Below are positions 1 to 54,084 of a stretch of DNA of 64,000 nucleotides, in pieces. The stretch is from an uncultured Candidatus Melainabacteria bacterium (lineage in GTDB: Bacteria > Cyanobacteriota > Vampirovibrionia > Gastranaerophilales > Gastranaerophilaceae). Below the pieces are notes generated by a model. That model did no database searches. It worked only from the letters and a program-made list of their open reading frames with translations, and had not been told where the DNA came from. Position 1 is the first letter of the stretch. Every line of letters starts with the position of its first letter. Location: NCBI GenBank assembly GCA_934754515.1, contig CAKVIG010000004.1, forward strand, positions 41,764 to 105,763. The letters are read 5' to 3'. A program made the translations under genes and the position numbers.

Positions 1-288
1 TATCGTAATTCAAATTTTTGTGCAAAATTTTATCATTATCCTAATGCTTATAACCACCCTGAAATAGCTAAAGGATTTGAAAAAGCAACAAAAGAGTATC
101 CAAACTATGTTTTATTGCAAGACCAAATTTCTTATTTTGGTGAAGACCAATTCTATTTGCTAGGTAAAAATGTTACAGTTTTTGATACAATGTCTTTGAC
201 AAATAGAAGAAAATATTTGACAAACGAAGATGTTGTTGATAAATTGGTCGGGCTTTTTCATAAAATGTTAGGGAATGAAGTTAAATAA
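1..288 (+). CDS. 3' end of an unidentified protein (open from window edge)
   Basis: Frame 1 is open from nt 1 to TAA at 286-288 (...YLTNEDVVDKLVGLFHKMLGNEVK*). The stop overlaps the next ATG (TAATG). No family recognised. Confidence 0.5.
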   Translation, partial: YRNSNFCAKFYHYPNAYNHPEIAKGFEKATKEYPNYVLLQDQISYFGEDQFYLLGKNVTVFDTMSLTNRRKYLTNEDVVDKLVGLFHKMLGNEVK

Positions 289-713
289 TGGCACGCAAAA
301 AATACCAAAACAAGACTATTCATTTTGTTATAACCTTTTTGCTTATGGCAACAGGGATTTATTATTTTGGTTTGAGTTATGTTCCTAAAAAGCTTTATGA
401 AACCCAAAAGATGAAGCCTAATCAGGTTGAAATGTATTATGAAGATGAGTGGTGTACTCCCGATTTTGGACGCAAAGAAGTTATTCTTTGGGATATGACA
501 AGAGTCGATTGCATGACAAAAGATTATGCAATTGAGTTTGACTTTGCTAAAAAGTGGGCAGAATCAATCGGACAATCACTTTATTATTCTAAACTTACAG
601 GAAAAGCTCCTGCAATAGTTTTAATTTTAACAACTCCAACCGATTATAGATACGTTAAAAGAATTGAAAGACTTGATAACGGGATTAAAGTATTTTTAAT
701 CGAGGCATTTTAA
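288..713 (+). CDS. hypothetical membrane-anchored protein
   Basis: 141-aa ORF with an N-terminal hydrophobic helix (IHFVITFLLMATGIYYFGL). Coupled to the upstream ORF and followed by a terminator hairpin. Confidence 0.6.
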   Translation: MARKKYQNKTIHFVITFLLMATGIYYFGLSYVPKKLYETQKMKPNQVEMYYEDEWCTPDFGRKEVILWDMTRVDCMTKDYAIEFDFAKKWAESIGQSLYYSKLTGKAPAIVLILTTPTDYRYVKRIERLDNGIKVFLIEAF

Positions 714-727
714 AAATTCATAAAAAA

Positions 728-748
728 AGAGCCATCAGGCTCTTTTTT
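728..748. terminator. bidirectional hairpin terminator between convergent genes
   Basis: AGAGCC-atca-GGCTCT stem, flanked by an A-run upstream and a T-run downstream. Confidence 0.6.
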
Positions 749-1136
749 ACTTGATATTTAAACGTTTTAATGCTTCAGCGATGAGTCCTTCATTTTTTAA
801 AAACTTTTCGGTGCTTCTTAATGAATGATAATGCTGGGTAAGATGTGTTTTAGGAGCAAGCCCTAAAAAATATTTAATTTTTTCTAATAGGGTTGGATTG
901 TCCTTTTTTGCTGTAATTGAAAGTCTATACAATGTTTCACCCGGATAATGTATGTTATCTTGTCCGCTTGCCGTAACTTCTCTCATTTCACCATATATCG
1001 TATGGTTTTTAGCTGCGTTTATCATATTTTTGCTGTCTGCGAAAACACTGGAATAGCCATTAACCCATTTGCCTTGAGTTATTACCATTCCTTTAAAGTT
1101 TGGCTGCATAGCTGTGTTAATAGGATTAATATTCAC
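747..1136 (-). CDS. hypothetical protein with MNINPIN...QPNFKG N-terminus
   Basis: 129-aa ORF. Its N-terminal motif is shared with ORFs at 9106 and 62961. No family recognised. Confidence 0.55.
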   Translation of the reverse strand: MNINPINTAMQPNFKGMVITQGKWVNGYSSVFADSKNMINAAKNHTIYGEMREVTASGQDNIHYPGETLYRLSITAKKDNPTLLEKIKYFLGLAPKTHLTQHYHSLRSTEKFLKNEGLIAEALKRLNIK

Positions 1137-1201
1137 GTTATACTCCTTAAAATATTTTATATTTCGACTGAGATTATTTTATCTGAATAGGACAAAAAAG
1201 T

Positions 1202-1229
1202 AAAGCTTCGATTCATTGTTCGAAGCTTT
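1202..1229 (-). terminator. rho-independent terminator after accC
   Basis: 10-bp stem AAAGCTTCGA/TCGAAGCTTT, followed by a T-run on the minus strand. Confidence 0.65.
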
Positions 1230-1235
1230 TACTGA

Positions 1236-2594
1236 TTATTTTTGTTTCTTTTCTTTTCTCTTATAGAAATCTTCTATAAATCCTGTATTGAAGTTTCCGC
1301 TCATAAATACTTCATCTTCAACGATTTCTTGGTGGAAAGGTATTGTTGTTTTAATTCCAGTTACAACATATTCTTTCAAAGCTTGATACATTCTGCGTCT
1401 TGCTTCGTTTCTGTTTTGTCCCCAACAAATCAATTTACCAATCATTGAATCATAATATGGTGGAATTGAATATCCCGGATAAACATGAGAATCAACTCTT
1501 ATACCGAAACCACCAGGGGCAAAATAGCCGTCAATCTTACCCGGACAAGGCATAAAGTCATGTTCAGGATCTTCTGCGTTGATACGGCATTCGATTGCGT
1601 GACCTCTCAAAAGAACATCATCTTGAGTGTAACCTAATTTTTTACCTGATGCTACAAGGATTTGTTCTCTTACGATATCAACTTGTGAAATCATTTCAGT
1701 TACACAGTGTTCAACTTGAACACGTGTATTCATTTCCATAAAATACCATTTTCCGTCATGGTCAAGCAAGAATTCGCAAGTACCTGCGCCTTCGTAACCG
1801 ATAGCTTTCGCAGCACGAACAGCAGCAGCACCCATTTCTTTTCTTGTTTCTTCGTCGATTGCAGGAGAAGGAGCTTCTTCTAACAATTTTTGGTGTCTTC
1901 TTTGAATAGAACAATCTCTTTCACCTAAGTGAATAACATTGCCGAAAGAGTCACCTAAGATTTGAACTTCAATGTGACGAGGGTTTTCCAAATATTTTTC
2001 AGCATAAACTCCAGGGTTGCCGAAGAATTTTTCAGCTTCCATTTGGCAAAGGTTCATGTTTGTTTCCAACTCATCATCGCTTCTTACGATTCTCATACCT
2101 TTACCGCCGCCACCTGCAGTTGCCTTAAGAATGATAGGATAACCTGCTTTGTGAGCAAATTCTCTAGCTTGTTCTACTGAGGTTAAGATACCTGTGCCCG
2201 GAGTAACAGGAACATCATTTTCAATCATTGTCTTACGAGCAGTCGCTTTATCACCCATCTTACGCATAGATTCCGCAGATGGCCCGATAAATTTGATACC
2301 GTGTTCTGTACAAATATCAACAAAATCGGCTCTTTCTGACATAAAACCATATCCCGGGTGGATAGCGTCACAGCCCGTCATTAAGGCTGTTGAAATAATA
2401 GCAGGAATGCTCAAATAACTTTGTGCACTAGGTGCAGGCCCGATACAATATGCATCTGTTGCCAATCTAACGTGTAATGACTTCGCGTCTGCTTGAGAAT
2501 ATACTGCAACCGTCGGAATGCCTAATTCTCTACACGCTCTAATTACTCTAACTGCGATTTCGCCTCTATTTGCTATTAATACTCGTTTAAACAT
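1236..2594 (-). CDS. accC: acetyl-CoA carboxylase biotin carboxylase subunit
   Basis: 452 aa with ATP-grasp biotin carboxylase signatures (MFKRVLIANRGEIAVRVIRAC, GGGGKGMR, EMNTRVQVEH). Lies directly downstream of accB. Confidence 0.97.
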   Translation of the reverse strand: MFKRVLIANRGEIAVRVIRACRELGIPTVAVYSQADAKSLHVRLATDAYCIGPAPSAQSYLSIPAIISTALMTGCDAIHPGYGFMSERADFVDICTEHGIKFIGPSAESMRKMGDKATARKTMIENDVPVTPGTGILTSVEQAREFAHKAGYPIILKATAGGGGKGMRIVRSDDELETNMNLCQMEAEKFFGNPGVYAEKYLENPRHIEVQILGDSFGNVIHLGERDCSIQRRHQKLLEEAPSPAIDEETRKEMGAAAVRAAKAIGYEGAGTCEFLLDHDGKWYFMEMNTRVQVEHCVTEMISQVDIVREQILVASGKKLGYTQDDVLLRGHAIECRINAEDPEHDFMPCPGKIDGYFAPGGFGIRVDSHVYPGYSIPPYYDSMIGKLICWGQNRNEARRRMYQALKEYVVTGIKTTIPFHQEIVEDEVFMSGNFNTGFIEDFYKRKEKKQK

Positions 2595-2697: not shown

Positions 2698-3159
2698 CTA
2701 TTCCACATACATCAAAACTTGACCAAATTCGATTGGGTCACCGTTTTTAACGCAGATTTGAACTACTTTACCTGCTTGTTCAGCTTTGATTTCGTTCATC
2801 AATTTCATTGCTTCAATAATACATACAACATCACCAACGTTAACAGTTGAACCCACTTCTACAAATGGAGCTGCGTCAGGGGAAGACGCTGCGTAGAAAG
2901 TACCTACCATAGGTGAAGTGATTGCTTTGCCTTTAACTTCTTCTTTAGCAGCAGGAGCCGGTGCAGAAGCTGCTTGAGGTGCAGCAGGTGCTGCTTGCGG
3001 AACGGCTGCAACAGCAGGTGCAGAAGCTACCATGTTAACTTCTGGTAAATCTTTTCTGATAGTGATAGCTTGTTCACCATCTTCTAAAGAAATTTCTGTT
3101 AAATCATTGTCAGCAATGATTTTTGCTAATTTTTCTATATAGTCTGATTCAAATTTCAT
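2698..3159 (-). CDS. accB: biotin carboxyl carrier protein
   Basis: 153 aa with an Ala/Pro-rich linker, then a biotinyl domain carrying the EAMKLMNEI motif. Confidence 0.95.
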
Positions 3160-3171
3160 TTTTATCTCCTT

Positions 3172-3300
3172 GAGTTGAAAAGTCGAAAAGTTGAATAGTT
3201 GAATAGTTCAATAAGTTCGCTATCGCTCACGAAATATCTTTATGACCGAAGGGAATTAAATAAACTTTTCAACTCTTCAGCTTTTCAACCTTTCAATCTT
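3172..3300. repeat. intergenic inverted repeat with 8-nt periodic arms (GTTGAAAA flavour)
   Basis: The left arm GTTGAAAA GTCGAAAA GTTGAATA GTTGAATA pairs with the right arm AAACTTTTCAACTCTTCAGCTTTTCAACCTTTCAA. Homologous to the element at 50272-50401. Confidence 0.65.
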
Positions 3301-3301
3301 T

Positions 3302-3859
3302 CTAAACTCTATCCAAGTATTCATTGCTTCTTGTATCAACTCTAATTACATCACCGTTTGATACGAAGAATGGAACGTTTACAACAGCACCTGTTTCAAG
3401 TGTTGCAGGTTTTGTACCGCCTTGAGCAGTGTTACCCTTTTCAGCAGGTGGAGTATCAACAACTTCCAACTCAACGTGAGCAGGAATATCAACACCGATA
3501 ATTCTCTTATCGTGCATCAAAACTTGTACAATCATATTTTCTTTAAGGTATTTTACGCCATCACCAACTTGGTCATCTGTAAGTTGAAGTTGTTCGTAAG
3601 TTTCGTTATCCATCATAACGTAATCTTTACCTTCTTTGTATAAATATTGCATTTCTCTACGGTCAAGCATAGCTTTTGCAACTTTTTCACCGGCTCTGAA
3701 AGTTTTTTCGATAACGTTACCTGATTCAACGTTTTTAAGCTTTGTTCTAACGAAAGCTGCGCCTTTACCGGGTTTAACGTGTAAGAATTCAACAACGTTC
3801 CATAGACCGTTATCTAGTTCAAGTGTCAAGCCATTCTTTAAATCGTTTACTGAAATCAT
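3302..3859 (-). CDS. efp: translation elongation factor P
   Basis: 185 aa with the conserved [16 protein letters not shown] loop. Overall it looks very similar to cyanobacterial EF-P as I remember it. Confidence 0.97.
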
Positions 3860-4026
3860 ACGTGCTCCTTAAATATATTACTATTCGTCTTTTTTCTTGA
3901 TACTAACATAAAGGCGTTTTTCTCGCAACCTACTTGCTAAATCTGTAATTCTAAGTAGAAATTATCACTTCTTAAACTCAACGGATTTAAGAATGTAACG
4001 TTTTGTAACGTTTCATTTAAAAAGCC

Positions 4027-4053
4027 TAAAGTTTTTCAAAAATCTGCCGATAT
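4027..4053 (+). promoter_or_regulatory. sigma-28 (FliA) type promoter
   Basis: TAAAGTTT-N11-GCCGATAT matches the enterobacterial consensus TAAAGTTT-N11-GCCGATAA. It ends 36 nt before the ATG at 4090. Confidence 0.7.
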
Positions 4054-4089
4054 ACATGTTACTAAAGGGAAAAAATAAGGAGCAATAGT

Positions 4090-6471
4090 ATGTCAAACGA
4101 TGTATCAAGAGTTTATCAATTTTTAGCAAACTTAGGCGATTGGAAAACAAAGGCTGATAAAAATAGTGATGGAACGATTATTAAATCCGAATTCAGTTCT
4201 TTCATGGAAGAAAATTATGACTGGGACGGCGAAACAACTAATGCAGGCAAAAATGATTTAATCAATTCCTTCTGGAAAGCTATTGATACAAACCAAGGCG
4301 GTAAAATTTCCGGTACAAGATATAAAAACAAAAACGCATTGGATAGCAAAGAAATAAATGCAATGCAAGACCGCATTGATGTTTATGAAAAATTAAATGA
4401 ATATGTTGCAGATATCCAAGCTCCTAACGAAATTTCAGATAAAGCAGGTTGGAAGAAATCAATTTCCGCTTCCTTAGCAAATACAACAGAAACTTTGATT
4501 AAACAAGGTGTTACAGCGGATACTTTAGCAGAAGAATTAGATAAAATTATTGAAAATGTAAAAAACAAAACAACTGCTGATTATTGCGCAAATGAATATC
4601 TTAATACTTCAATGAAAGATGTTGTAAAGCAATACGGTTATGCTTACGCTGATGATGCAACATTGAAAGGTATTATTGATAACTTTGTAAACAATTTGCC
4701 TGAAGATTCTGACAGTGCTTCTATTAAACAAACAGTAGAAGAAATTATTGACGCTTATATGGCAACTGCAACAGGTGACGGCAGTGAAGATATTTCAATC
4801 TTGGAACAATATGGCTACACACCAAGCAATAATACTGCAATGAACGATTTGCAAAAAAGTATTGTAAAAACTAAGTTAACAGAAGCTTTGGCAGATTTGA
4901 AAAATGAAGCTGATTACAAAAATAACAGCGCATTGTATGACACTGCAATTAATGAGTACATTGATTCAATATTAAATGACAAAACTTATGGCGACTATAC
5001 AAATGATACGATTGAATACTCTTTACAAGCATTCAAAGACAGTGAAACAGGTAAAACTTTAACTAAGACTATTGAAGTTAAAAACTTGTTCAATAGTGAT
5101 GAATTCAAAGCGTATCTTACAGACAAATTAAGCTCATCATTTGCTGATAGAGTTTCAGGCTTGATGAAAGGTGAAATTTCAGCTTATGACGATATTCAAG
5201 CTCAAGCATTAGAAAAAGCTAAGAATGGCGATTTTGACACAAACGGTACATTGGATACTCAAAAAGCAATTGATTGGGTTGTAGAACAAATGACTCAAAG
5301 ATTGACAGAATTCTATCCAAATGGTTTGAATGATATGTCACTTACAGATTTGGGCGTGATGTATGACAAATTGGTTGAATCTGCAAAAGCAAATGAAGAT
5401 GCAGCTTCTGTAAAAACGGCAGCACTATCATACTGTAATGCAGTTGCGAAAAAGAGTACATTATTATCTCAAGCAGTTAAAGATATCTTTGGAAATTCTT
5501 ACGCAACAGAAATTAATAAATTAACTACTCCTGAAATTGAATCAAAAATGATAGATTTGAGAGCTAAGGTTGAAGAAATCGGCGATCCAAGTACATTTAA
5601 AGTTGCTGGTTGGGGGTCTTTACCAACTGAAATTTCTATGGCAACAGGTGGTAGCAAGAGTTACAAATTGGAATCAACTGTTACAAATGGCACATCTGCA
5701 ATTGCGGCTGATAGAATAAGTTATGGTTATAATGTAAAAAATGGTAATGCGAAAGTTTCAATTTCGGATGCAGGAGCATTAACAATCTCTGCAGGTAGCA
5801 CAAATGGTACATCTACGATTGAAATATATGCTATGGTTGATAATGCAAAAGTAGAACCTGCTATGACAATTAAAGTAACTTCAAATAAAGCCAACTTTGA
5901 CTGGGGTAGTATGACCGCTAAATACAATGGCTACATTGCAAATGGCAATGGTGGTGAAACTCCAAATTCTGTTAAAACATTGGGTGAATTATACAATAGC
6001 AACGGTGTTATTAATTTGTTACCAAGCGAAGGATTAATGAGAGGTACAAACTGGACAGGTGCCGTTGCAACGGCAAAGGCTAACGTTGGAAGTTTTGTTG
6101 AAATGCTAGCAAGCAATTGTACTGCAACTGGTGAGTATAATGAAAAAGCTTTGAATACTGCAAAACAAAAAGTTATAGCTTTGTATGAAACTGCATTTGA
6201 CCATTCATTAAAAAACTGGGCAGGCAAAAAGAAGACAAGAGATAACTTAGTAGAATTTGATGGCGAAAACTATGGTTATGAAGTAGCAAAATATTGGAGT
6301 AATGCTTCTACCCGAAACACTGCTTATTCAGCAGGTTGTAGCGCAAGCAATAACCAATTAGGTTTAAGAATTAGTGAACAGTATGACGACCATTGGTTCC
6401 AAGTAACAGTGAATGTAAAATGTGTAATGGACTTATTTAATAAATTTTACGAACAAGCATTGACTGCATAA
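4090..6471 (+). CDS. large hypothetical protein, N-terminal EF-hand, C-terminal Ig-like (Big_2-like) region
   Basis: 793 aa with an AAGGAG RBS. Canonical EF-hand loop DKNSDGTIIKSE plus a degenerate second loop DTNQGGKISG. A beta-rich segment (~res 510-600) resembles a bacterial Ig-like domain. No signal peptide. Confidence 0.8.
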   Translation: MSNDVSRVYQFLANLGDWKTKADKNSDGTIIKSEFSSFMEENYDWDGETTNAGKNDLINSFWKAIDTNQGGKISGTRYKNKNALDSKEINAMQDRIDVYEKLNEYVADIQAPNEISDKAGWKKSISASLANTTETLIKQGVTADTLAEELDKIIENVKNKTTADYCANEYLNTSMKDVVKQYGYAYADDATLKGIIDNFVNNLPEDSDSASIKQTVEEIIDAYMATATGDGSEDISILEQYGYTPSNNTAMNDLQKSIVKTKLTEALADLKNEADYKNNSALYDTAINEYIDSILNDKTYGDYTNDTIEYSLQAFKDSETGKTLTKTIEVKNLFNSDEFKAYLTDKLSSSFADRVSGLMKGEISAYDDIQAQALEKAKNGDFDTNGTLDTQKAIDWVVEQMTQRLTEFYPNGLNDMSLTDLGVMYDKLVESAKANEDAASVKTAALSYCNAVAKKSTLLSQAVKDIFGNSYATEINKLTTPEIESKMIDLRAKVEEIGDPSTFKVAGWGSLPTEISMATGGSKSYKLESTVTNGTSAIAADRISYGYNVKNGNAKVSISDAGALTISAGSTNGTSTIEIYAMVDNAKVEPAMTIKVTSNKANFDWGSMTAKYNGYIANGNGGETPNSVKTLGELYNSNGVINLLPSEGLMRGTNWTGAVATAKANVGSFVEMLASNCTATGEYNEKALNTAKQKVIALYETAFDHSLKNWAGKKKTRDNLVEFDGENYGYEVAKYWSNASTRNTAYSAGCSASNNQLGLRISEQYDDHWFQVTVNVKCVMDLFNKFYEQALTA

Positions 6472-48329: not shown

Positions 48330-48746
48330 ATGATTACAAAAAGTTTAGAAGATTATATCGAATACATCTATACTTCACTTTCTAACAACAAAGAGCTTAA
48401 AGCGATTGATATTGCTAAGAAATTCAACATATCTAGAGCGAGTGTTTCGGAAGCCCTAATCAGATTATGTGAATTAGGATTAGTTATATACGAAGGACGA
48501 AAAGGAATTATTGTTACTGAAAAAGGCGAAATTGAAGCAAAAAGAGTTATAAAAAAGCACCAAATTCTTTTAAATTTCTTCAATAAGGCTTTAAATATTG
48601 AATTTGAAAAAGCTTCGGATAATGCTTGCAAAATTGAGCATGTTATTGATGACGATGTTGTTTCAATATTGGAAAAATTTAATCAATTTAGCGATAAAAA
48701 TAATCTAAAAAAAGATTTTGTGGAGTTTCTACAAAATGATAAATAA
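48330..48746 (+). CDS. DtxR/MntR-family metal-dependent transcriptional regulator
   Basis: 138 aa. N-terminal winged HTH (LEDYIEYIY...ISRASVSEAL) and a dimerisation/metal domain (KKHQILLNFF...EH). Confidence 0.8.
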   Translation: MITKSLEDYIEYIYTSLSNNKELKAIDIAKKFNISRASVSEALIRLCELGLVIYEGRKGIIVTEKGEIEAKRVIKKHQILLNFFNKALNIEFEKASDNACKIEHVIDDDVVSILEKFNQFSDKNNLKKDFVEFLQNDK

Positions 48747-49719
48747 CATTAAATCTTTTGCAAAGTTTTTAGATCAACCAATGCTTATAGCGCATTTAAA
48801 TAAAAATATGCCGAAAATTATGCTTACAGGAACAGCTCTATATAGTGCAAAAAAGGGTTATGATGTTTATAAGGAGGATAAAACTTTTACAAGAACGAAA
48901 GATTATTTCAAGAACACGAGCATACTCTTTTCTTCCGCAGTTTGCGCTCTTCTTGCCCCAAAATTAGCCTCCAAAATCACACGGAGACCGCAATTAGAAA
49001 ATTTAAAGGCAATAAAAGAACAAAATACAAAATTTGTTGATGAGTTTATTTCAAAGAATAAAAATTCTTTAAGTAAAAATAGTCTAAAAACCTTGGAAGA
49101 AGCAAAAACCAACATTCTTTCATTGTCTAAAATCAAAAAATTAATGGAAGATTTAAAAGCAAAGAAGCTTGACGAATTTATGAAAAAATTAATTCCTGAC
49201 CCTGAAAATATAAGTTCTAAAGATATTTTTTCTGAAATCGGTTACTTATCAATATACGGCGCTATACCTGTTGTTGGAGGAATCACTAGCGGTTTAGCAG
49301 CAGATAAAATCGCAGGAGAAGACATTAAAAAAACAGCTCCCGACAAAGTAAGCGAAGGTTTGTATCAGTATTTGGCAAATATTTTTATGTGCAATATTGG
49401 AGCTGGAGTAGCTCTTGGGGTTTTAGAAAAATTGAATATAACCTCCAAAGCTTGCCGAGCAATAGGCATGGTTAGCGGAATAATCTTAACGGGTGTTATT
49501 GGCGGTTCCAAAATTGCAAATTATATAACCGACAAGGTTTCTAAAAAAGTCGGTATAAAAGATATTAAAGAAAGAAAACCCGAGCTAATAGATTTAGGAA
49601 TGCATACTGACGATATAGCAACTGTCGCAGTTTTATCAGGTTTAAAATGGATAGAACCATGCTTGCCGTTTTTGTATTCGATTTCTGGTTATAAAGCAGG
49701 GATTGGGTATAGGAATTGA
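48718..49719 (+). CDS. hypothetical membrane protein downstream of the metalloregulator
   Basis: 333-aa ORF (the start may be the ATG at 48736). Gly-rich TM helices in the C-terminal half. No known transporter family recognised. Confidence 0.6.
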   Translation: MWSFYKMINNIKSFAKFLDQPMLIAHLNKNMPKIMLTGTALYSAKKGYDVYKEDKTFTRTKDYFKNTSILFSSAVCALLAPKLASKITRRPQLENLKAIKEQNTKFVDEFISKNKNSLSKNSLKTLEEAKTNILSLSKIKKLMEDLKAKKLDEFMKKLIPDPENISSKDIFSEIGYLSIYGAIPVVGGITSGLAADKIAGEDIKKTAPDKVSEGLYQYLANIFMCNIGAGVALGVLEKLNITSKACRAIGMVSGIILTGVIGGSKIANYITDKVSKKVGIKDIKERKPELIDLGMHTDDIATVAVLSGLKWIEPCLPFLYSISGYKAGIGYRN

Positions 49720-49758: not shown

Positions 49759-49836
49759 CAACACATCTTTATTAATTTGAAAAGTTATTATCAGGCAGTG
49801 TCTGACCTACATACTAATATTATATTTAAAAGTTAA

Positions 49837-49866
49837 GGGTGCAAAAAATTGCACCCTACTTTTTTT
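49837..49866 (+). terminator. GGGTGCAAAAAATTGCACCC hairpin plus T-run
   Basis: Conserved hairpin followed by TACTTTTTTT. Confidence 0.7.
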
Positions 49867-49906: not shown

Positions 49907-49933
49907 AAGGCGCGATATTTTATATCGCGCCTT
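49907..49933. terminator. hairpin downstream of the glycyl-radical ORF
   Basis: AAGGCGCGATAT-ttt-ATATCGCGCCTT, a perfect 12-bp stem. Confidence 0.55.
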
Positions 49934-49962: not shown

Positions 49963-50217
49963 CTAGCAGCCGCAGCCGTTACCTAAAGAAGCGTGGAATG
50001 TTCTTGAGATAACATCGTCTTGTTGTTCTTTTGTTAACTTAATGAAGTTTACAGCATAACCTGAAACTCTTACTGTTAATTGTGGGTATTTTTCAGGATG
50101 TGCTTGAGCATCAAGCAATGTTTCTCTGTTGAATACGTTTACGTTTAAGTGGTGACCACCCTTTTCAACATAACCGTCTAAAAGATTTATTAAGTTTTCT
50201 TCTTGTTGTGTTGTCAT
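49963..50217 (-). CDS. stand-alone glycyl-radical domain (C-terminal piece of pyruvate formate-lyase, GrcA-like)
   Basis: 84 aa from the ATG preceded by AAGGAA. Contains GGHHLNVNV and the radical loop [15 protein letters not shown]. Ends with the extra tail ASLGNGCGC. The track ORF starts at TTG 54 nt upstream. Confidence 0.85.
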
Positions 50218-50271
50218 TGTTTTATTCCTTATGTTTGTCGGATTCTTAATCCGCTCTACTACTTTCATCAA

Positions 50272-50401
50272 GAGTTGATAAGTTGAATGGTTGAAAGGAT
50301 GAAAAGTTCGTATTAAATACTTTCAATGTCTAACAAGTTAAACAATATAATTTCTTTTTAACAAACTTTTCAACTGTTCAACTTTTTCATCTTTCAACTG
50401 G
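50272..50401. repeat. inverted repeat with 8-nt periodic arms, inside the pfl split
   Basis: GTTGATAA GTTGAATG GTTGAAAG GATGAAAA GTTCG pairs with AAACTTTTCAACTGTTCAACTTTTTCATCTTTCAAC. Both arms are homologous to the element at 3172-3300. Confidence 0.7.
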
Positions 50402-50418
50402 TTGTTAAAGATTTTTCC

Positions 50419-52503
50419 TTAGCAACCGCAAGTTCCTTCTGAGCATCCGCAATCAAGTTGGATGTCCAAGTCGCCCATGAATACATCATCTTTACCCAAT
50501 GCGTTAGGGATAATTGAGAATGTATTTGAGATACCATCTTGAGCATCGTTGAATGGAAGCTTAGCAACTGAAGCCAAAGATGCTACAGCACCGTGAGTAT
50601 CACGTCTGTGCATTGGGTTAGCACCAGGAGCTAGAGGAATACCGGCTTTTCTACCGTCAGGAGTGTTACCTGTTTTCTTACCATAAACAACGTTTGAAGT
50701 AATTGTTAAGATAGACATTGTAGGAATAGAATTTCTATAAGTATAGTGTTTTCTAATCATATTCATGAATTTCTTAACAAGGTTAACTGCGAATTGGTCA
50801 ACTCTATCATCGTTGTTACCATATTTTGGATAATCGCCTTCAACTTCATAGTCAACAACCAAACCGTTTTCGTCACGGATAGTTTTAACTTTTGCATATT
50901 TGATAGCTGAAAGTGAGTCAGCAACTACTGATAAGCCAGCGATACCTGTTGCGAAATATCTCTTAACATCTCTATCGTGAAGAGCCATTTGAGATCTTTC
51001 GTAGCAATATTTGTCGTGCATGTAGTGGATAACGTTCAATGTATTAACATACAAGCCTGCTAACCATTCCATCATATCTTCATATCTTTCCATAACTTCA
51101 TCGAAGTCTAGGTATTCAGAAGTGATAGGTCTGTATTTAGGACCAACTTGTTCTTTAATTCTTTCATCAACACCACCGTTGATAGCGTATAATAAGCACT
51201 TAGCCAAGTTAGCTCTTGCACCGAAGAATTGCATTTCTTTACCAACTACCATTGAAGATACGCAACAAGCAATAGCGTAATCGTCACCGTGAGTAACTCT
51301 CATCAAATCATCGTTTTCGTATTGGATAGATGAAGTTGTGATAGAGATGTGAGCAGCATATTGTTTGAATGCGTGTGGTAATCTCTTAGACCACAATACT
51401 GTCATGTTAGGTTCAGGAGCTGTACCTAAGTTTTCTAGTGTGTGTAAGTAACGGAATGAGTTTTTAGTAACCATGTGACGACCGTCAATACCAACACCAC
51501 CGATTGATTCAGTTACCCAAGTAGGGTCGCCTGAGAACAATGAATTGTATTCAGGAGTTCTTGCGAACTTAACTAATCTTAACTTCATGATGAAGTGGTC
51601 AATCATTTCTTGAGCTTCTGCTTCAGTGATAACACCGTTTCTCAAATCTCTTTCAATGAAGATATCCAAGAAAGTAGAAGTTCTACCAACTGACATTGCA
51701 GCACCGTTTTGTTCTTTTACTGCTGATAAGTAACCGAAGTATAACCATTGGATAGCTTCTTTAGCGTTTGAAGCAGGTTTTCTGATATCGAAACCGTATT
51801 CATCACCCAATTCAGCCATTTCTTGCAATGCTCTGATTTGTTCAGCCAATTCTTCTTTTAATTGGATTTTTTCAGGTCTCATTTCGCCATCTAATGAAGC
51901 ATGTTGTTCTTTCTTGTCTTCGATTAATCTGTCGATACCATAAAGAGCGATTCTTCTGTAGTCACCAATGATACGACCACGACCGTAAGCATCAGGCAAA
52001 CCTGTCAAGATAGCTGCGTGTCTTGCTTTTCTCATTTCAGGAGTATAGCAATCAAAAACACCTTGGTTGTGAGTTTTTCTGTATTTTGTGAAAATTTCTG
52101 TAATTTCAGGGTCAACTTCGTAACCATAAGATTTGCAAGAAGTTTCAGCCATTCTGATACCACCAAATGGTTGTAGAGAACGTTTTAGAGGTTTATCTGT
52201 TTGCAAACCAACGATTTGTTCTAAGCTTTTGTCAATATAACCAGCCTTGTGAGAAGTGATTGTAGAAACGATTTTTGTGTCCATATCAAGAACACCACCG
52301 TTTTCACGTTCTTTTTTGAACAAATCGCAGCATTCTTGCCACAATTTTGTAGTTGCTTCAGTTGGGCCTGCCAAGAAGCTAGAATCACCATCATAAGGTG
52401 TGTAGTTTTTTTGGATGAAATCTCTTACGTTGATTTCTGACTGCCATTTGCCGCCAACAAAATCAGTTGTAGAAGATTGTTTTTCTAATGTTAATTCTGA
52501 CAT
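50419..52503 (-). CDS. pflB: pyruvate formate-lyase catalytic body lacking the glycyl-radical domain
   Basis: 694 aa with the active-site IACCVSS. It follows PflB as I recall it up to ...IPNALGKDD, then diverges into a 21-aa tail [21 protein letters not shown] and stops. Confidence 0.88.
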
Positions 52504-53346: not shown

Positions 53347-54084
53347 ATGTTTAAAAGAAGATTATTAATTTTAGCTTGCCTATTACTTTGCGTTCCAACA
53401 TTCGCGGATGATAATACTAACGGTATTTATGTCGGAACACCCAAAGGTTTTTATGATGACATTGACCCGAACAGCTTGGATGAAGACGAAGATTTGATAT
53501 CGCCTGCACAGCAGCAAGATGTTGCAATTCCTTCTCAAGGTGGCAATAATGAAGTAATTATTCCACCAACAAGAACCAAAGCGACAAAAGACTATACACA
53601 AATTTATAATGATTTAGAAGTACCGACTTTTTCATACCTTCATGATATCGACCCCGACCAATATTATGATATGAAAGACACGGCTTGGTCTGTTTATCCG
53701 CTATTCAGATTAAATTCACCGCTATATTTTAAAAATATAACAATCGAGCCCGGGTATTATTTGTTAACTCCGAGAGAACATAACGGTGAATGGTTTATGC
53801 TGTTTAAACAAAATGGAGTTGTAAAACACATTATACCTGTTTACGAAAGAGATTACACACCTGAAACTTTCTACAACGACCACATTCCAAAACCGAAGTA
53901 TACAACTGCACAAAAAATGCACATGGGATTTTTGGATTTTATAGGAAACTTTAAAAGCACAAAGAGAAAAACTCCTGTTCAGTCATATTTAGAAGTAAAT
54001 GATTTAGAAAATTATTTTGTTTCTATAATTATTTATTACGGTTCGCACAAATATTCTACAATTTTCAGAACCATAAGACTTTAA
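53347..54084 (+). CDS. secreted hypothetical protein
   Basis: 245 aa with signal peptide MFKRRLLILACLLLCVPTFA. The PGYYLLTPRE block resembles ORF 24520. Confidence 0.65.
   Translation: MFKRRLLILACLLLCVPTFADDNTNGIYVGTPKGFYDDIDPNSLDEDEDLISPAQQQDVAIPSQGGNNEVIIPPTRTKATKDYTQIYNDLEVPTFSYLHDIDPDQYYDMKDTAWSVYPLFRLNSPLYFKNITIEPGYYLLTPREHNGEWFMLFKQNGVVKHIIPVYERDYTPETFYNDHIPKPKYTTAQKMHMGFLDFIGNFKSTKRKTPVQSYLEVNDLENYFVSIIIYYGSHKYSTIFRTIRL

Follow-up and report, generated by a model that had tools for sequence, protein, structure and literature searches.

A 64,000-nucleotide stretch of DNA from an uncultured Candidatus Melainabacteria bacterium of the order Gastranaerophilales, a gut-dwelling, nonphotosynthetic relative of the cyanobacteria (contig CAKVIG010000004.1, positions 41,764 to 105,763; hereinafter, the window) encodes a pyruvate formate-lyase (PFL) in two open reading frames (ORFs): a pflB-type ORF of 694 amino acids (aa) and, downstream of it, an 84-aa ORF that carries the glycyl-radical loop. 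The two ORFs probably encode the subunits of a naturally split, obligately heteromeric PFL with a replaceable radical subunit. A functional two-chain enzyme is favored because the split is conserved, purifying selection acts on both pieces, and the small ORF comes with a ribosome-binding site (RBS) and an ATG start codon of its own. Judging from the sequence comparisons described below, the split appears to be old, with a fixed break point, and common to hundreds of gut and rumen species, rather than a local accident. The copy in the window seems to be an ordinary member of a split-PFL family; its small chain has a clade-specific tail, and its spacer received a repeat secondarily.

The large ORF matched the Pfam PFL-like family over residues 23-608 (E 1e-222) and passed the NCBIfam model for formate C-acetyltransferase, TIGR01255, with 1147.3 bits against a cut-off of 994.2. 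The TIGR01255 match covered only profile positions 5-663 of 744, and the match to the Pfam Gly_radical family only positions 2-49 of 106. The catalytic Cys pair lies within the motif IACCVSS (residues 411-417), which is invariant across 22 aligned homologs. When aligned to the solved E. coli PFL (PDB 1h16), the large ORF corresponds to residues 8-679, with NALGKDD as the last homologous letters; the radical glycine loop RVSGY is absent from this barrel polypeptide, which ends at the equivalent of E. coli residue 679, and is found instead, as RVSGYAV, on the 84-aa ORF. Annotation pipelines label the body as a complete “formate C-acetyltransferase.”

The two ORFs are exactly complementary: the small ORF covers Gly_radical profile positions 51-106, and it aligns with E. 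coli PFL residues 682-758, with PFL homology beginning at its residue 6. It passed the NCBIfam model NF038360 (“GrcA3”; 162.6 bits against a cut-off of 158, profile positions 2-78 of 78) and scored below the cut-offs of the GrcA/YfiD model TIGR04365 (96 against 170) and the GrcA2 model NF008341 (108.4 against 145). The NF038360 model has 78 positions; the C-terminal GNGCGC tail of the small ORF and the long tails found in sister species fall outside it. Most elements of this architecture had been recognized in the initial annotation, made from the sequence alone, which described an enzyme encoded as two polypeptides: a 694-aa ORF with the PFL Cys pair, with PflB likeness up to GKDD at about residue 678 of E. 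coli PflB, followed by an unrelated 21-aa tail and a stop codon, and then a separate ORF with its own AAGGAA RBS that continues with the next PflB segment, including the glycyl-radical loop, and extends past the usual RTF terminus with GNGCGC. All of this was borne out by the alignments and profile searches, and the two-polypeptide reading gained further support from the conserved split and the purifying selection.

Selection on both pieces is strong. Relative to eight Gastranaerophilales relatives, the ratio of nonsynonymous to synonymous substitution rates (dN/dS, Nei-Gojobori) was 0.04-0.10 for the body and 0.02-0.08 for the small ORF, so the relaxed selection that the initial annotation had named as evidence against a functional split was not seen. 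The same two ORFs, with the same 201-nt spacer, are present on an independent ENA contig (L001; related loci are denoted by L numbers), which answers the concern over an assembly artifact, and the architecture is identical in independent assemblies (120 of the 120 large-subunit homologs listed). Apart from the unusual architecture itself, nothing points to an assembly error or a pseudogene, and given the independent assemblies and the selection on both ORFs, the probability of such an origin is negligible.

The locus was compared with ~160 best-matching loci, namely, 80 best loci from GTDB species and 80 metagenome loci, a sample that is smaller than the family. The same break was found in nearly all of them, in other Gastranaerophilales, Ruminococcus callidus, Ruminococcus albus, Lachnospiraceae, and Oscillospiraceae. 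A stand-alone ORF of 78-84 aa that starts with M..Q(V/I/E)(D/E)NL..LLDGY is present in 80 of the 80 GTDB-species loci and, in every one of these loci that contains a body, lies just downstream of this ~700-aa PFL body; among the metagenome loci, the split was present in ~65 of 80. The pairing recurs in ~140 loci across two phyla. Named carriers include R. callidus ATCC 27760, R. albus KH2T6, and a metagenome-assembled genome (MAG) of Ruminococcus flavefaciens, along with many Lachnospiraceae, Oscillospiraceae, and Acutalibacteraceae. The search of related genomes suggested in the initial annotation, for pflB genes that end near GKDD and are accompanied by a separate radical-domain ORF, found such pairs across the best-matching loci. 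The best GTDB locus for the window, L002 (lineage Candidatus Gastranaerophilales), encodes a small-ORF core 100% identical to that in the window. In the nearest one-piece relatives (L135, L153, L157-159, and L161), which are among the metagenome loci, the sequence GKDETGEEQNLVALLDAY... is continuous across the junction, and there is no Cys tail. A search with the small chain against representatives at 50% identity yielded 4723 matches, the best 150 of which were short proteins or contig-end fragments. The gene for the activase, pflA, is located immediately downstream of the small gene in L002, L007, L009, L011, L016, and L018; no pflA was found by tblastn within the 64-kb window, in agreement with the initial annotation.

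The spacer between the two ORFs contains an imperfect inverted repeat with arms at approximately 50270-50308 and 50364-50399. The periodic TTGAAnnn pattern was matched 13 times, against 1.9 expected, and 0 of 100 shuffles reached 13; the spacer RNA is predicted to fold into a long imperfect hairpin (dG -42.2 kcal/mol, z -3.1). The initial annotation correctly described a gap filled by an 8-nt periodic inverted repeat, a copy of which is also found between accB and efp, and proposed that an insertion of this repeat created the split, with the CGC tails of the two products possibly forming an inter-chain metal site or disulfide. The repeat is real, occupies most of the spacer, and is also present in the spacer of L001, where the length is the same; nevertheless, the claim on the origin of the split is refuted. 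The same GK(D/E)x break, followed by a homologous tail, is found in loci with repeat-less spacers of only 1-30 nt, as in many Clostridia, and relatives with bodies 87-95% identical to that in the window (L094, L096, L007, L009, and L010) carry unrelated hairpins in this spacer; because of these two observations, the TTGAAnnn repeat appears to have been inserted late, into an intercistronic gap that already existed. The spacer of L002 contains a different periodic element, GTGATTAA / GTCACnnA, and those of L082, L084, and L087 are only 16-33 nt long and include an RBS. The 8-nt periodic hairpin elements of the window (3175-3304 and 50270-50400) and L002 form a family of intergenic elements that look like repetitive extragenic palindromic (REP)-like or miniature inverted-repeat transposable element (MITE)-like elements of Gastranaerophilales. 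The periodic hairpin in the spacer may tune relative expression or mRNA stability, and the presence of one hairpin or another here in the nearest relatives suggests that a stem-loop may be useful for mRNA stability or subunit stoichiometry.

The variability of the spacer also bears on the idea that a single polypeptide is produced after all, by readthrough, ribosomal bypassing, RNA splicing of the spacer, or protein splicing. The two ORFs are in the same frame in the window (201 nt corresponds to 67 codons), and the gene for another glycyl-radical enzyme, phage nrdD, is known to be interrupted by introns or inteins (PMC3653736). However, the spacer contains three in-frame stop codons, and among the relatives, the gap ranges freely from 1 to ~400 nt and the relative frame takes all three values (0, 1, or 2); because of these stops and this variation, readthrough, frameshifting, and a fixed intron or intein are effectively ruled out. 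Further evidence against a single product comes from the conserved RBS and ATG ahead of the small ORF and from those lineages in which the gap encodes another protein. No match to any Rfam family, intron or other, was detected across the window, and no intein motifs were found; the tail and the N-terminus of the small chain are far too short for an intein. Intein, intron, and readthrough were, accordingly, rejected as candidates, and we consider a single polypeptide highly improbable.

The body ends with a tail that consists of a [VI]F.GD[LI]D[IV].LD core followed by a Cys motif. In the 120 large-subunit homologs listed (98-100% identical), the tail is the same in all 120, and the final residues are CGC or CQ; the proportion of nonsynonymous differences in the tail (pN) was 0.08-0.33 compared with a synonymous proportion (pS) of 0.54-1.0. 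Homologous tails are found on the bodies of Clostridia and other Gastranaerophilales: in the split relatives, the body reaches GK(D/E)x and continues with the core [VIL]F.G[DE][LI][DE][ILV]. The post-core segment differs among lineages, taking the form LDCGC(C/S)E... in Gastranaerophilales, including the window; further forms are LD.GCCE..., LDC..GAC.SPTLFEGLD..., and C..C.NIPN.... The window tail contains four Cys residues in a CxCx4CxC arrangement, of which about two are conserved across the split-PFL family. The Cys motif is widespread, as CGC, GCC, or C..GAC in many lineages, and not universal: in the Ruminococcus-type loci, the body tail is Cys-free with an acidic end (DLDKLRGE...), and three bodies (L072, L147, and L166) have no tail at all. 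Judged by its distribution, the tail appears to be a conserved module associated with the split state, and its acidic strand-like segment and Cys motif most likely serve to attract or retain the small chain or to take its place.

The tails of the small chain are far more restricted. Ends resembling GNGCGC (GNSCGC, GGCSCGC, and GCGC) are found only in the immediate clade of the window, whereas other Gastranaerophilales small chains have either no tail or a hypervariable tail of ~55 aa, probably disordered, with a conserved EYTP.EE..PRTSVGSMSMPSDF..EKIHSNV motif. This long tail is present on the small subunit in most close Gastranaerophilales relatives (L082:6001-6420, L084:6001-6417, L087-L093, and proteins P0007-P0120); in L091 and L102, it is the body rather than the small subunit that bears a long tail (..SSYMTPL..). 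The GCGC tail of the small chain therefore looks like a recent, clade-specific variation.

These distributions weigh on the second part of the initial proposal, in which the matching CGC tails could join the two chains through a metal site or disulfide. There are four Cys residues in the body tail and two in the small tail; the two PFL pieces are the only genuine ORFs in the window with CGC-type ends (the possibility that such tails are a genome-wide habit was rejected on this ground); and small-chain Cys tails were found only beside body tails that end in CEGTC(GC|Q), in five of five loci (the window, L001, L002, L094, and L096). Conversely, the small piece is Cys-free in most relatives, Ruminococcus-type and tail-less bodies lack the Cys residues, and CEGTCK/Q-type body tails are also paired with tail-less small pieces (L007, L009, and L104). 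With respect to conservation, then, the Cys motif of the body was recovered in many lineages and not in all, and the GCGC end of the small piece not beyond a narrow clade; the inter-chain site finds little support as a general feature, with a weak co-occurrence left within the clade. Matched tails could be, at best, a clade-specific embellishment, leaving room for an interaction within that clade, and the full scenario of a recent repeat insertion with a tail-to-tail site is improbable.

The Cys-free body tails coincide with long gaps, of 190-410 nt, that encode a third ORF of ~55-90 aa, which we denoted ORF-X. This ORF is not present in the window; it is located, for example, at L029:3652-3989 and is also found in L019, L024, L037, L045, and ~45 other loci, where it is unannotated, having been missed entirely by annotation pipelines. 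We recovered 51 distinct ORF-X sequences, including MAEHEVKEQDKSDELVDMIEKLMEDGSGHLTISEDDLMGEGLNVKTYRSMDCSKGNMACCQPTEFIEDE from R. callidus, with a pN/pS of 0.2-0.5, indicative of purifying selection. Searches with ORF-X against Pfam and NCBIfam identified no family; against PDB, Pfam, and NCBIfam, they yielded only chance-level EF-hand matches besides a weak match of the N-terminal part to GrcA3. This part resembles the helix-plus-strand start of GrcA3 (model positions 2-29, E 5.5e-5), and a hidden Markov model of ORF-X matches fused PFL C-termini and the small ORF of the window at ~1e-6. A profile-profile comparison of ORF-X with GrcA3 by hhalign (E 3.9e-5, probability 44%) supports homology of the N-terminal part only. 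The C-terminal part contains DC..GAC(C)QP(T/N)E and an acidic end and shows a weak match (E 4e-4 to 1e-2, Z=1000) to body tails of the C..GAC type. Because of this resemblance, the Cys module appears to be either fused to the body or separately encoded, in the Ruminococcus-type loci on ORF-X. ORF-X may be a paralog of GrcA3 in which a DC..GAC(C) finger has taken the place of the Gly finger.

The two chains of the window share with E. coli PflB (TIGR01255; PDB 1h16 and 2pfl) the fold family, the catalytic Cys-Cys pair, and the RVSGY glycine loop. E. coli PflB is a single chain of 759-760 aa, whereas in the window, the last ~78 residues are on a separate gene product, and the 21-aa Cys tail of the body has no counterpart in E. 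coli PflB. As a free radical-loop protein that would complete a PFL body, the small chain resembles GrcA/YfiD of E. coli and Y06I of phage T4 (PDB 6owr). E. coli PFL truncated after residue 695, tPFL(1-695), is correctly folded and together with YfiD is as active as the wild type once activated, although binding is weak (PMC8683613); the disordered N-terminus of YfiD and PFL residues 696-733 provide recognition (PMC8683613). The differences are substantial. GrcA is a back-up for a PFL with its own radical domain, whereas the partner body in the window lacks one. GrcA/YfiD has a disordered N-terminal recognition region of ~60 aa, with alignment starting from YfiD residue 68; the small protein of the window lacks this region and begins ~11 residues earlier than GrcA in PFL numbering.

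This comparison bears on the main alternative, under which the small protein is a spare part that repairs an O2-cleaved full-length PFL encoded elsewhere in the genome, and the adjacent body is a paralog with another role or a decaying copy. Such a role is implied by “autonomous glycyl radical cofactor GrcA3,” the name of the NCBIfam family to which the small ORF belongs, and is compatible with its matches, below the cut-offs, to the GrcA2 and GrcA models; moreover, in some genomes, the small gene is unlinked to any body, and L023 has a second PFL body nearby. The evidence from the locus, in contrast, implies that the small protein is the only radical domain of the enzyme. Of the genes compared, the adjacent body is one of the most conserved; it retains the catalytic Cys pair, and what it lacks is exactly the segment encoded by the small ORF, the two neither overlapping nor leaving a gap; the pairing recurs across two phyla; and GrcA3 has no counterpart of the N-terminal region with which YfiD recognizes cleaved PFL. 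We therefore regard the spare-part role as unlikely. A June 2026 review of glycyl radical enzymes covers small radical-bearing proteins only as YfiD-type spare parts (PMC13450708), and in the literature searched, we found no paper that describes a native split PFL and none that uses the term “GrcA3.” The second body in L023 (positions 2-1660, reverse strand), a Candidatus Ornithomonoglobus MAG, is a paralog 68.5% identical to that of the window and adjoins a split-PFL locus.

The solved chains closest to the body are PDB 38la_A (687 aa) and 38lb_A (739 aa), both named “Formate acetyltransferase,” with 1170 and 1168 bits, respectively; both are from organisms other than that of the window. The 38la_A chain ends exactly at ...GKED. 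The 38lb_A chain continues with ...GKSGNVMFGECDM and a further 43 aa; GKSGNVMFGECDM aligns with the start of the window tail (VF/MF.G..D type), whereas the remainder is unrelated to the rest of the window tail, and the alignment with a chimeric query stops at residue 696. Both chains lack the glycyl-radical loop, there being no match to them with the small chain as the query, and on this evidence, they look like bodies of split PFLs. No GrcA3-like chain was found in PDB, including the 38la and 38lb entries, and the literature search found no publication linked to 38la_A or 38lb_A.

Among other glycyl radical enzymes, benzylsuccinate synthase (BSS; alpha-beta-gamma) and 4-hydroxyphenylacetate decarboxylase (HpdBC) consist of a large chain and Cys-rich accessory polypeptides of 60-90 aa, a composition that resembles the PFL body with its Cys tail or ORF-X. 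In BSS and HpdBC, however, the radical glycine is on the large chain, whereas in the window it is on the small one, and BSS beta and gamma and HpdC bind [4Fe-4S] clusters via four or more conserved Cys residues, compared with about two that are conserved family-wide in the split PFL and none in some members. The split nrdD genes of phages are, like the split PFL, glycyl-radical enzyme genes in separate coding pieces (PMC3653736). Those splits are sporadic, recent, and tied to introns, inteins, or homing endonucleases; the PFL split, unlike them, appears ancient: its break point is fixed, and its origin bears no mark of a mobile element.

In the mechanism that we propose for the split PFL, the 694-aa chain would supply the barrel and the thiyl-radical cysteines but no radical glycine, and the 84-aa chain would supply the helix that corresponds to residues 682-692, the barrel strand beta-10, the Gly finger (RVSGYAV), and the C-terminal helix. 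A PflA-type activase, presumably encoded elsewhere in the genome, would generate the radical on the small chain while this chain is free or held only loosely. The activated small chain would then dock into the body, completing the barrel and the active site and delivering the Gly finger to the Cys pair, a step modeled on the action of YfiD/GrcA on E. coli PFL truncated at residue 695. Damage by O2 at the glycyl radical would destroy only the 9-kDa “cartridge,” so that the 78-kDa body would not have to be resynthesized. The body tail or ORF-X would provide a recognition, holding, or placeholder function that a one-piece enzyme does not need. It is possible, if rather doubtful, that the Cys tail of the body and the free-standing ORF-X are surrogates of the radical domain that occupy or gate the empty slot until displaced by the activated small subunit. 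Such a surrogate might be latched close to the catalytic cysteines by a thiol, a disulfide, or a metal; in the clade of the window, the GCGC end of the small chain would belong to this latch.

Several observations weigh against an obligate two-chain PFL. In six Gastranaerophilales loci (L003-L006, L008, and L013), the small gene has no body within 4 kb upstream, and because of these loci, linkage of the body and small genes is not obligatory. The tail does not seem essential to the split state, given the tail-less bodies in L072, L147, and L166. Structure prediction for the body alone, from an alignment of 22 sequences that are 98-100% identical, was unusable (predicted local distance difference test score, pLDDT, 34.7; predicted template modeling score, pTM, 0.32). 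No second PFL was found by tblastn within the 64-kb window; a one-piece PFL could be encoded elsewhere in the genome, in which case GrcA3 could also, or instead, be a spare part. A lone GrcA3 gene is also present in L098; in the loci with lone genes, the match is located at approximately 4001-4240 or 3001-3240, with 3-4 kb upstream covered. Beside the lone GrcA3 gene of L005 lies a divergently transcribed gene for a Crp/Fnr-like regulator, an assignment made by visual inspection of its sequence.

Table 1. Features of the split-PFL locus and associated elements in the window
Feature	Coordinates	Strand	Remarks
pflB-type large ORF with stop codon	50419-52503	-	ATG start; 694 aa
pflB-type catalytic body, residues 1-673	50485..52503	-	Barrel, Cys-Cys pair, and first half of glycyl-radical domain
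Body C-terminal tail (21 aa) with stop codon	50419..50484	-	Conserved extension not found in one-piece PFLs
Intercistronic spacer, 201 nt	50218..50418	-	~135-nt inverted repeat of 8-nt periodic TTGAAnnn units
AAGGAA ribosome-binding site	50225..50230	-	7 nt 5' of small-ORF ATG; outside hairpin
Small ORF including stop codon	49963-50217	-	84 aa; ATG at 50217
GrcA3-type glycyl-radical subunit, residues 1-78	49984..50217	-	RVSGYAV...RTFHASL; corresponds to E. coli PFL residues 682-758
Small-subunit Cys tail GNGCGC with stop codon	49963..49983	-	Clade-specific
Perfect 12-bp GC-containing hairpin, AAGGCGCGATAT / ATATCGCGCCTT	49907..49933	-	~30 nt 3' of small ORF
Second TTGAAnnn inverted-repeat copy	3175..3304		Between accB (2698-3159) and efp (3302-3859)

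The perfect hairpin downstream of the small ORF is likely to be the transcription terminator of the two-gene unit; a terminator consensus scan flagged the next hairpin, at 49836-49857, rather than this one. The flanking ORFs in the window, at 48718-49719 (plus strand, 333 aa) and 53347-54084 (plus strand, 245 aa), have no match in Pfam. The gene order downstream of the locus is not the same in the window as in the near-identical L001, in which Thy1 follows the small gene, and because of this difference, we infer a recent rearrangement on the 3' side. A DtxR/MntR-family repressor is encoded 1.2 kb downstream of the locus in the window (48330-48746, plus strand), and a FUR-family gene is located immediately upstream of the body gene in L082 (3271-3711) and L084 (3273-3755). 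The proximity of these metal- or peroxide-type regulators may point to control by metals or oxidative stress.

Of the glycyl radical enzymes, PFL is the most widespread, and its reaction is central to anaerobic carbon metabolism. In many abundant bacteria of the gut and rumen, among them Ruminococcus, Lachnospiraceae, Oscillospiraceae, and Gastranaerophilales, the split form, with its radical glycine on a separate 9-kDa chain, appears to be the usual PFL. In current annotation, the small chain is called a repair factor, the body is called a complete enzyme, and ORF-X is overlooked. The split PFL would be a natural system for an old question, namely, how the activase gains access to a glycine that is buried in the assembled enzyme, and it suggests a cheap tolerance of O2 damage, in which the fuse is replaced rather than the machine. 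If the Cys tail and ORF-X do act as surrogates of the radical domain, this would be a “cartridge” enzyme with a built-in placeholder, a new mode of control and protection for a glycyl radical enzyme.

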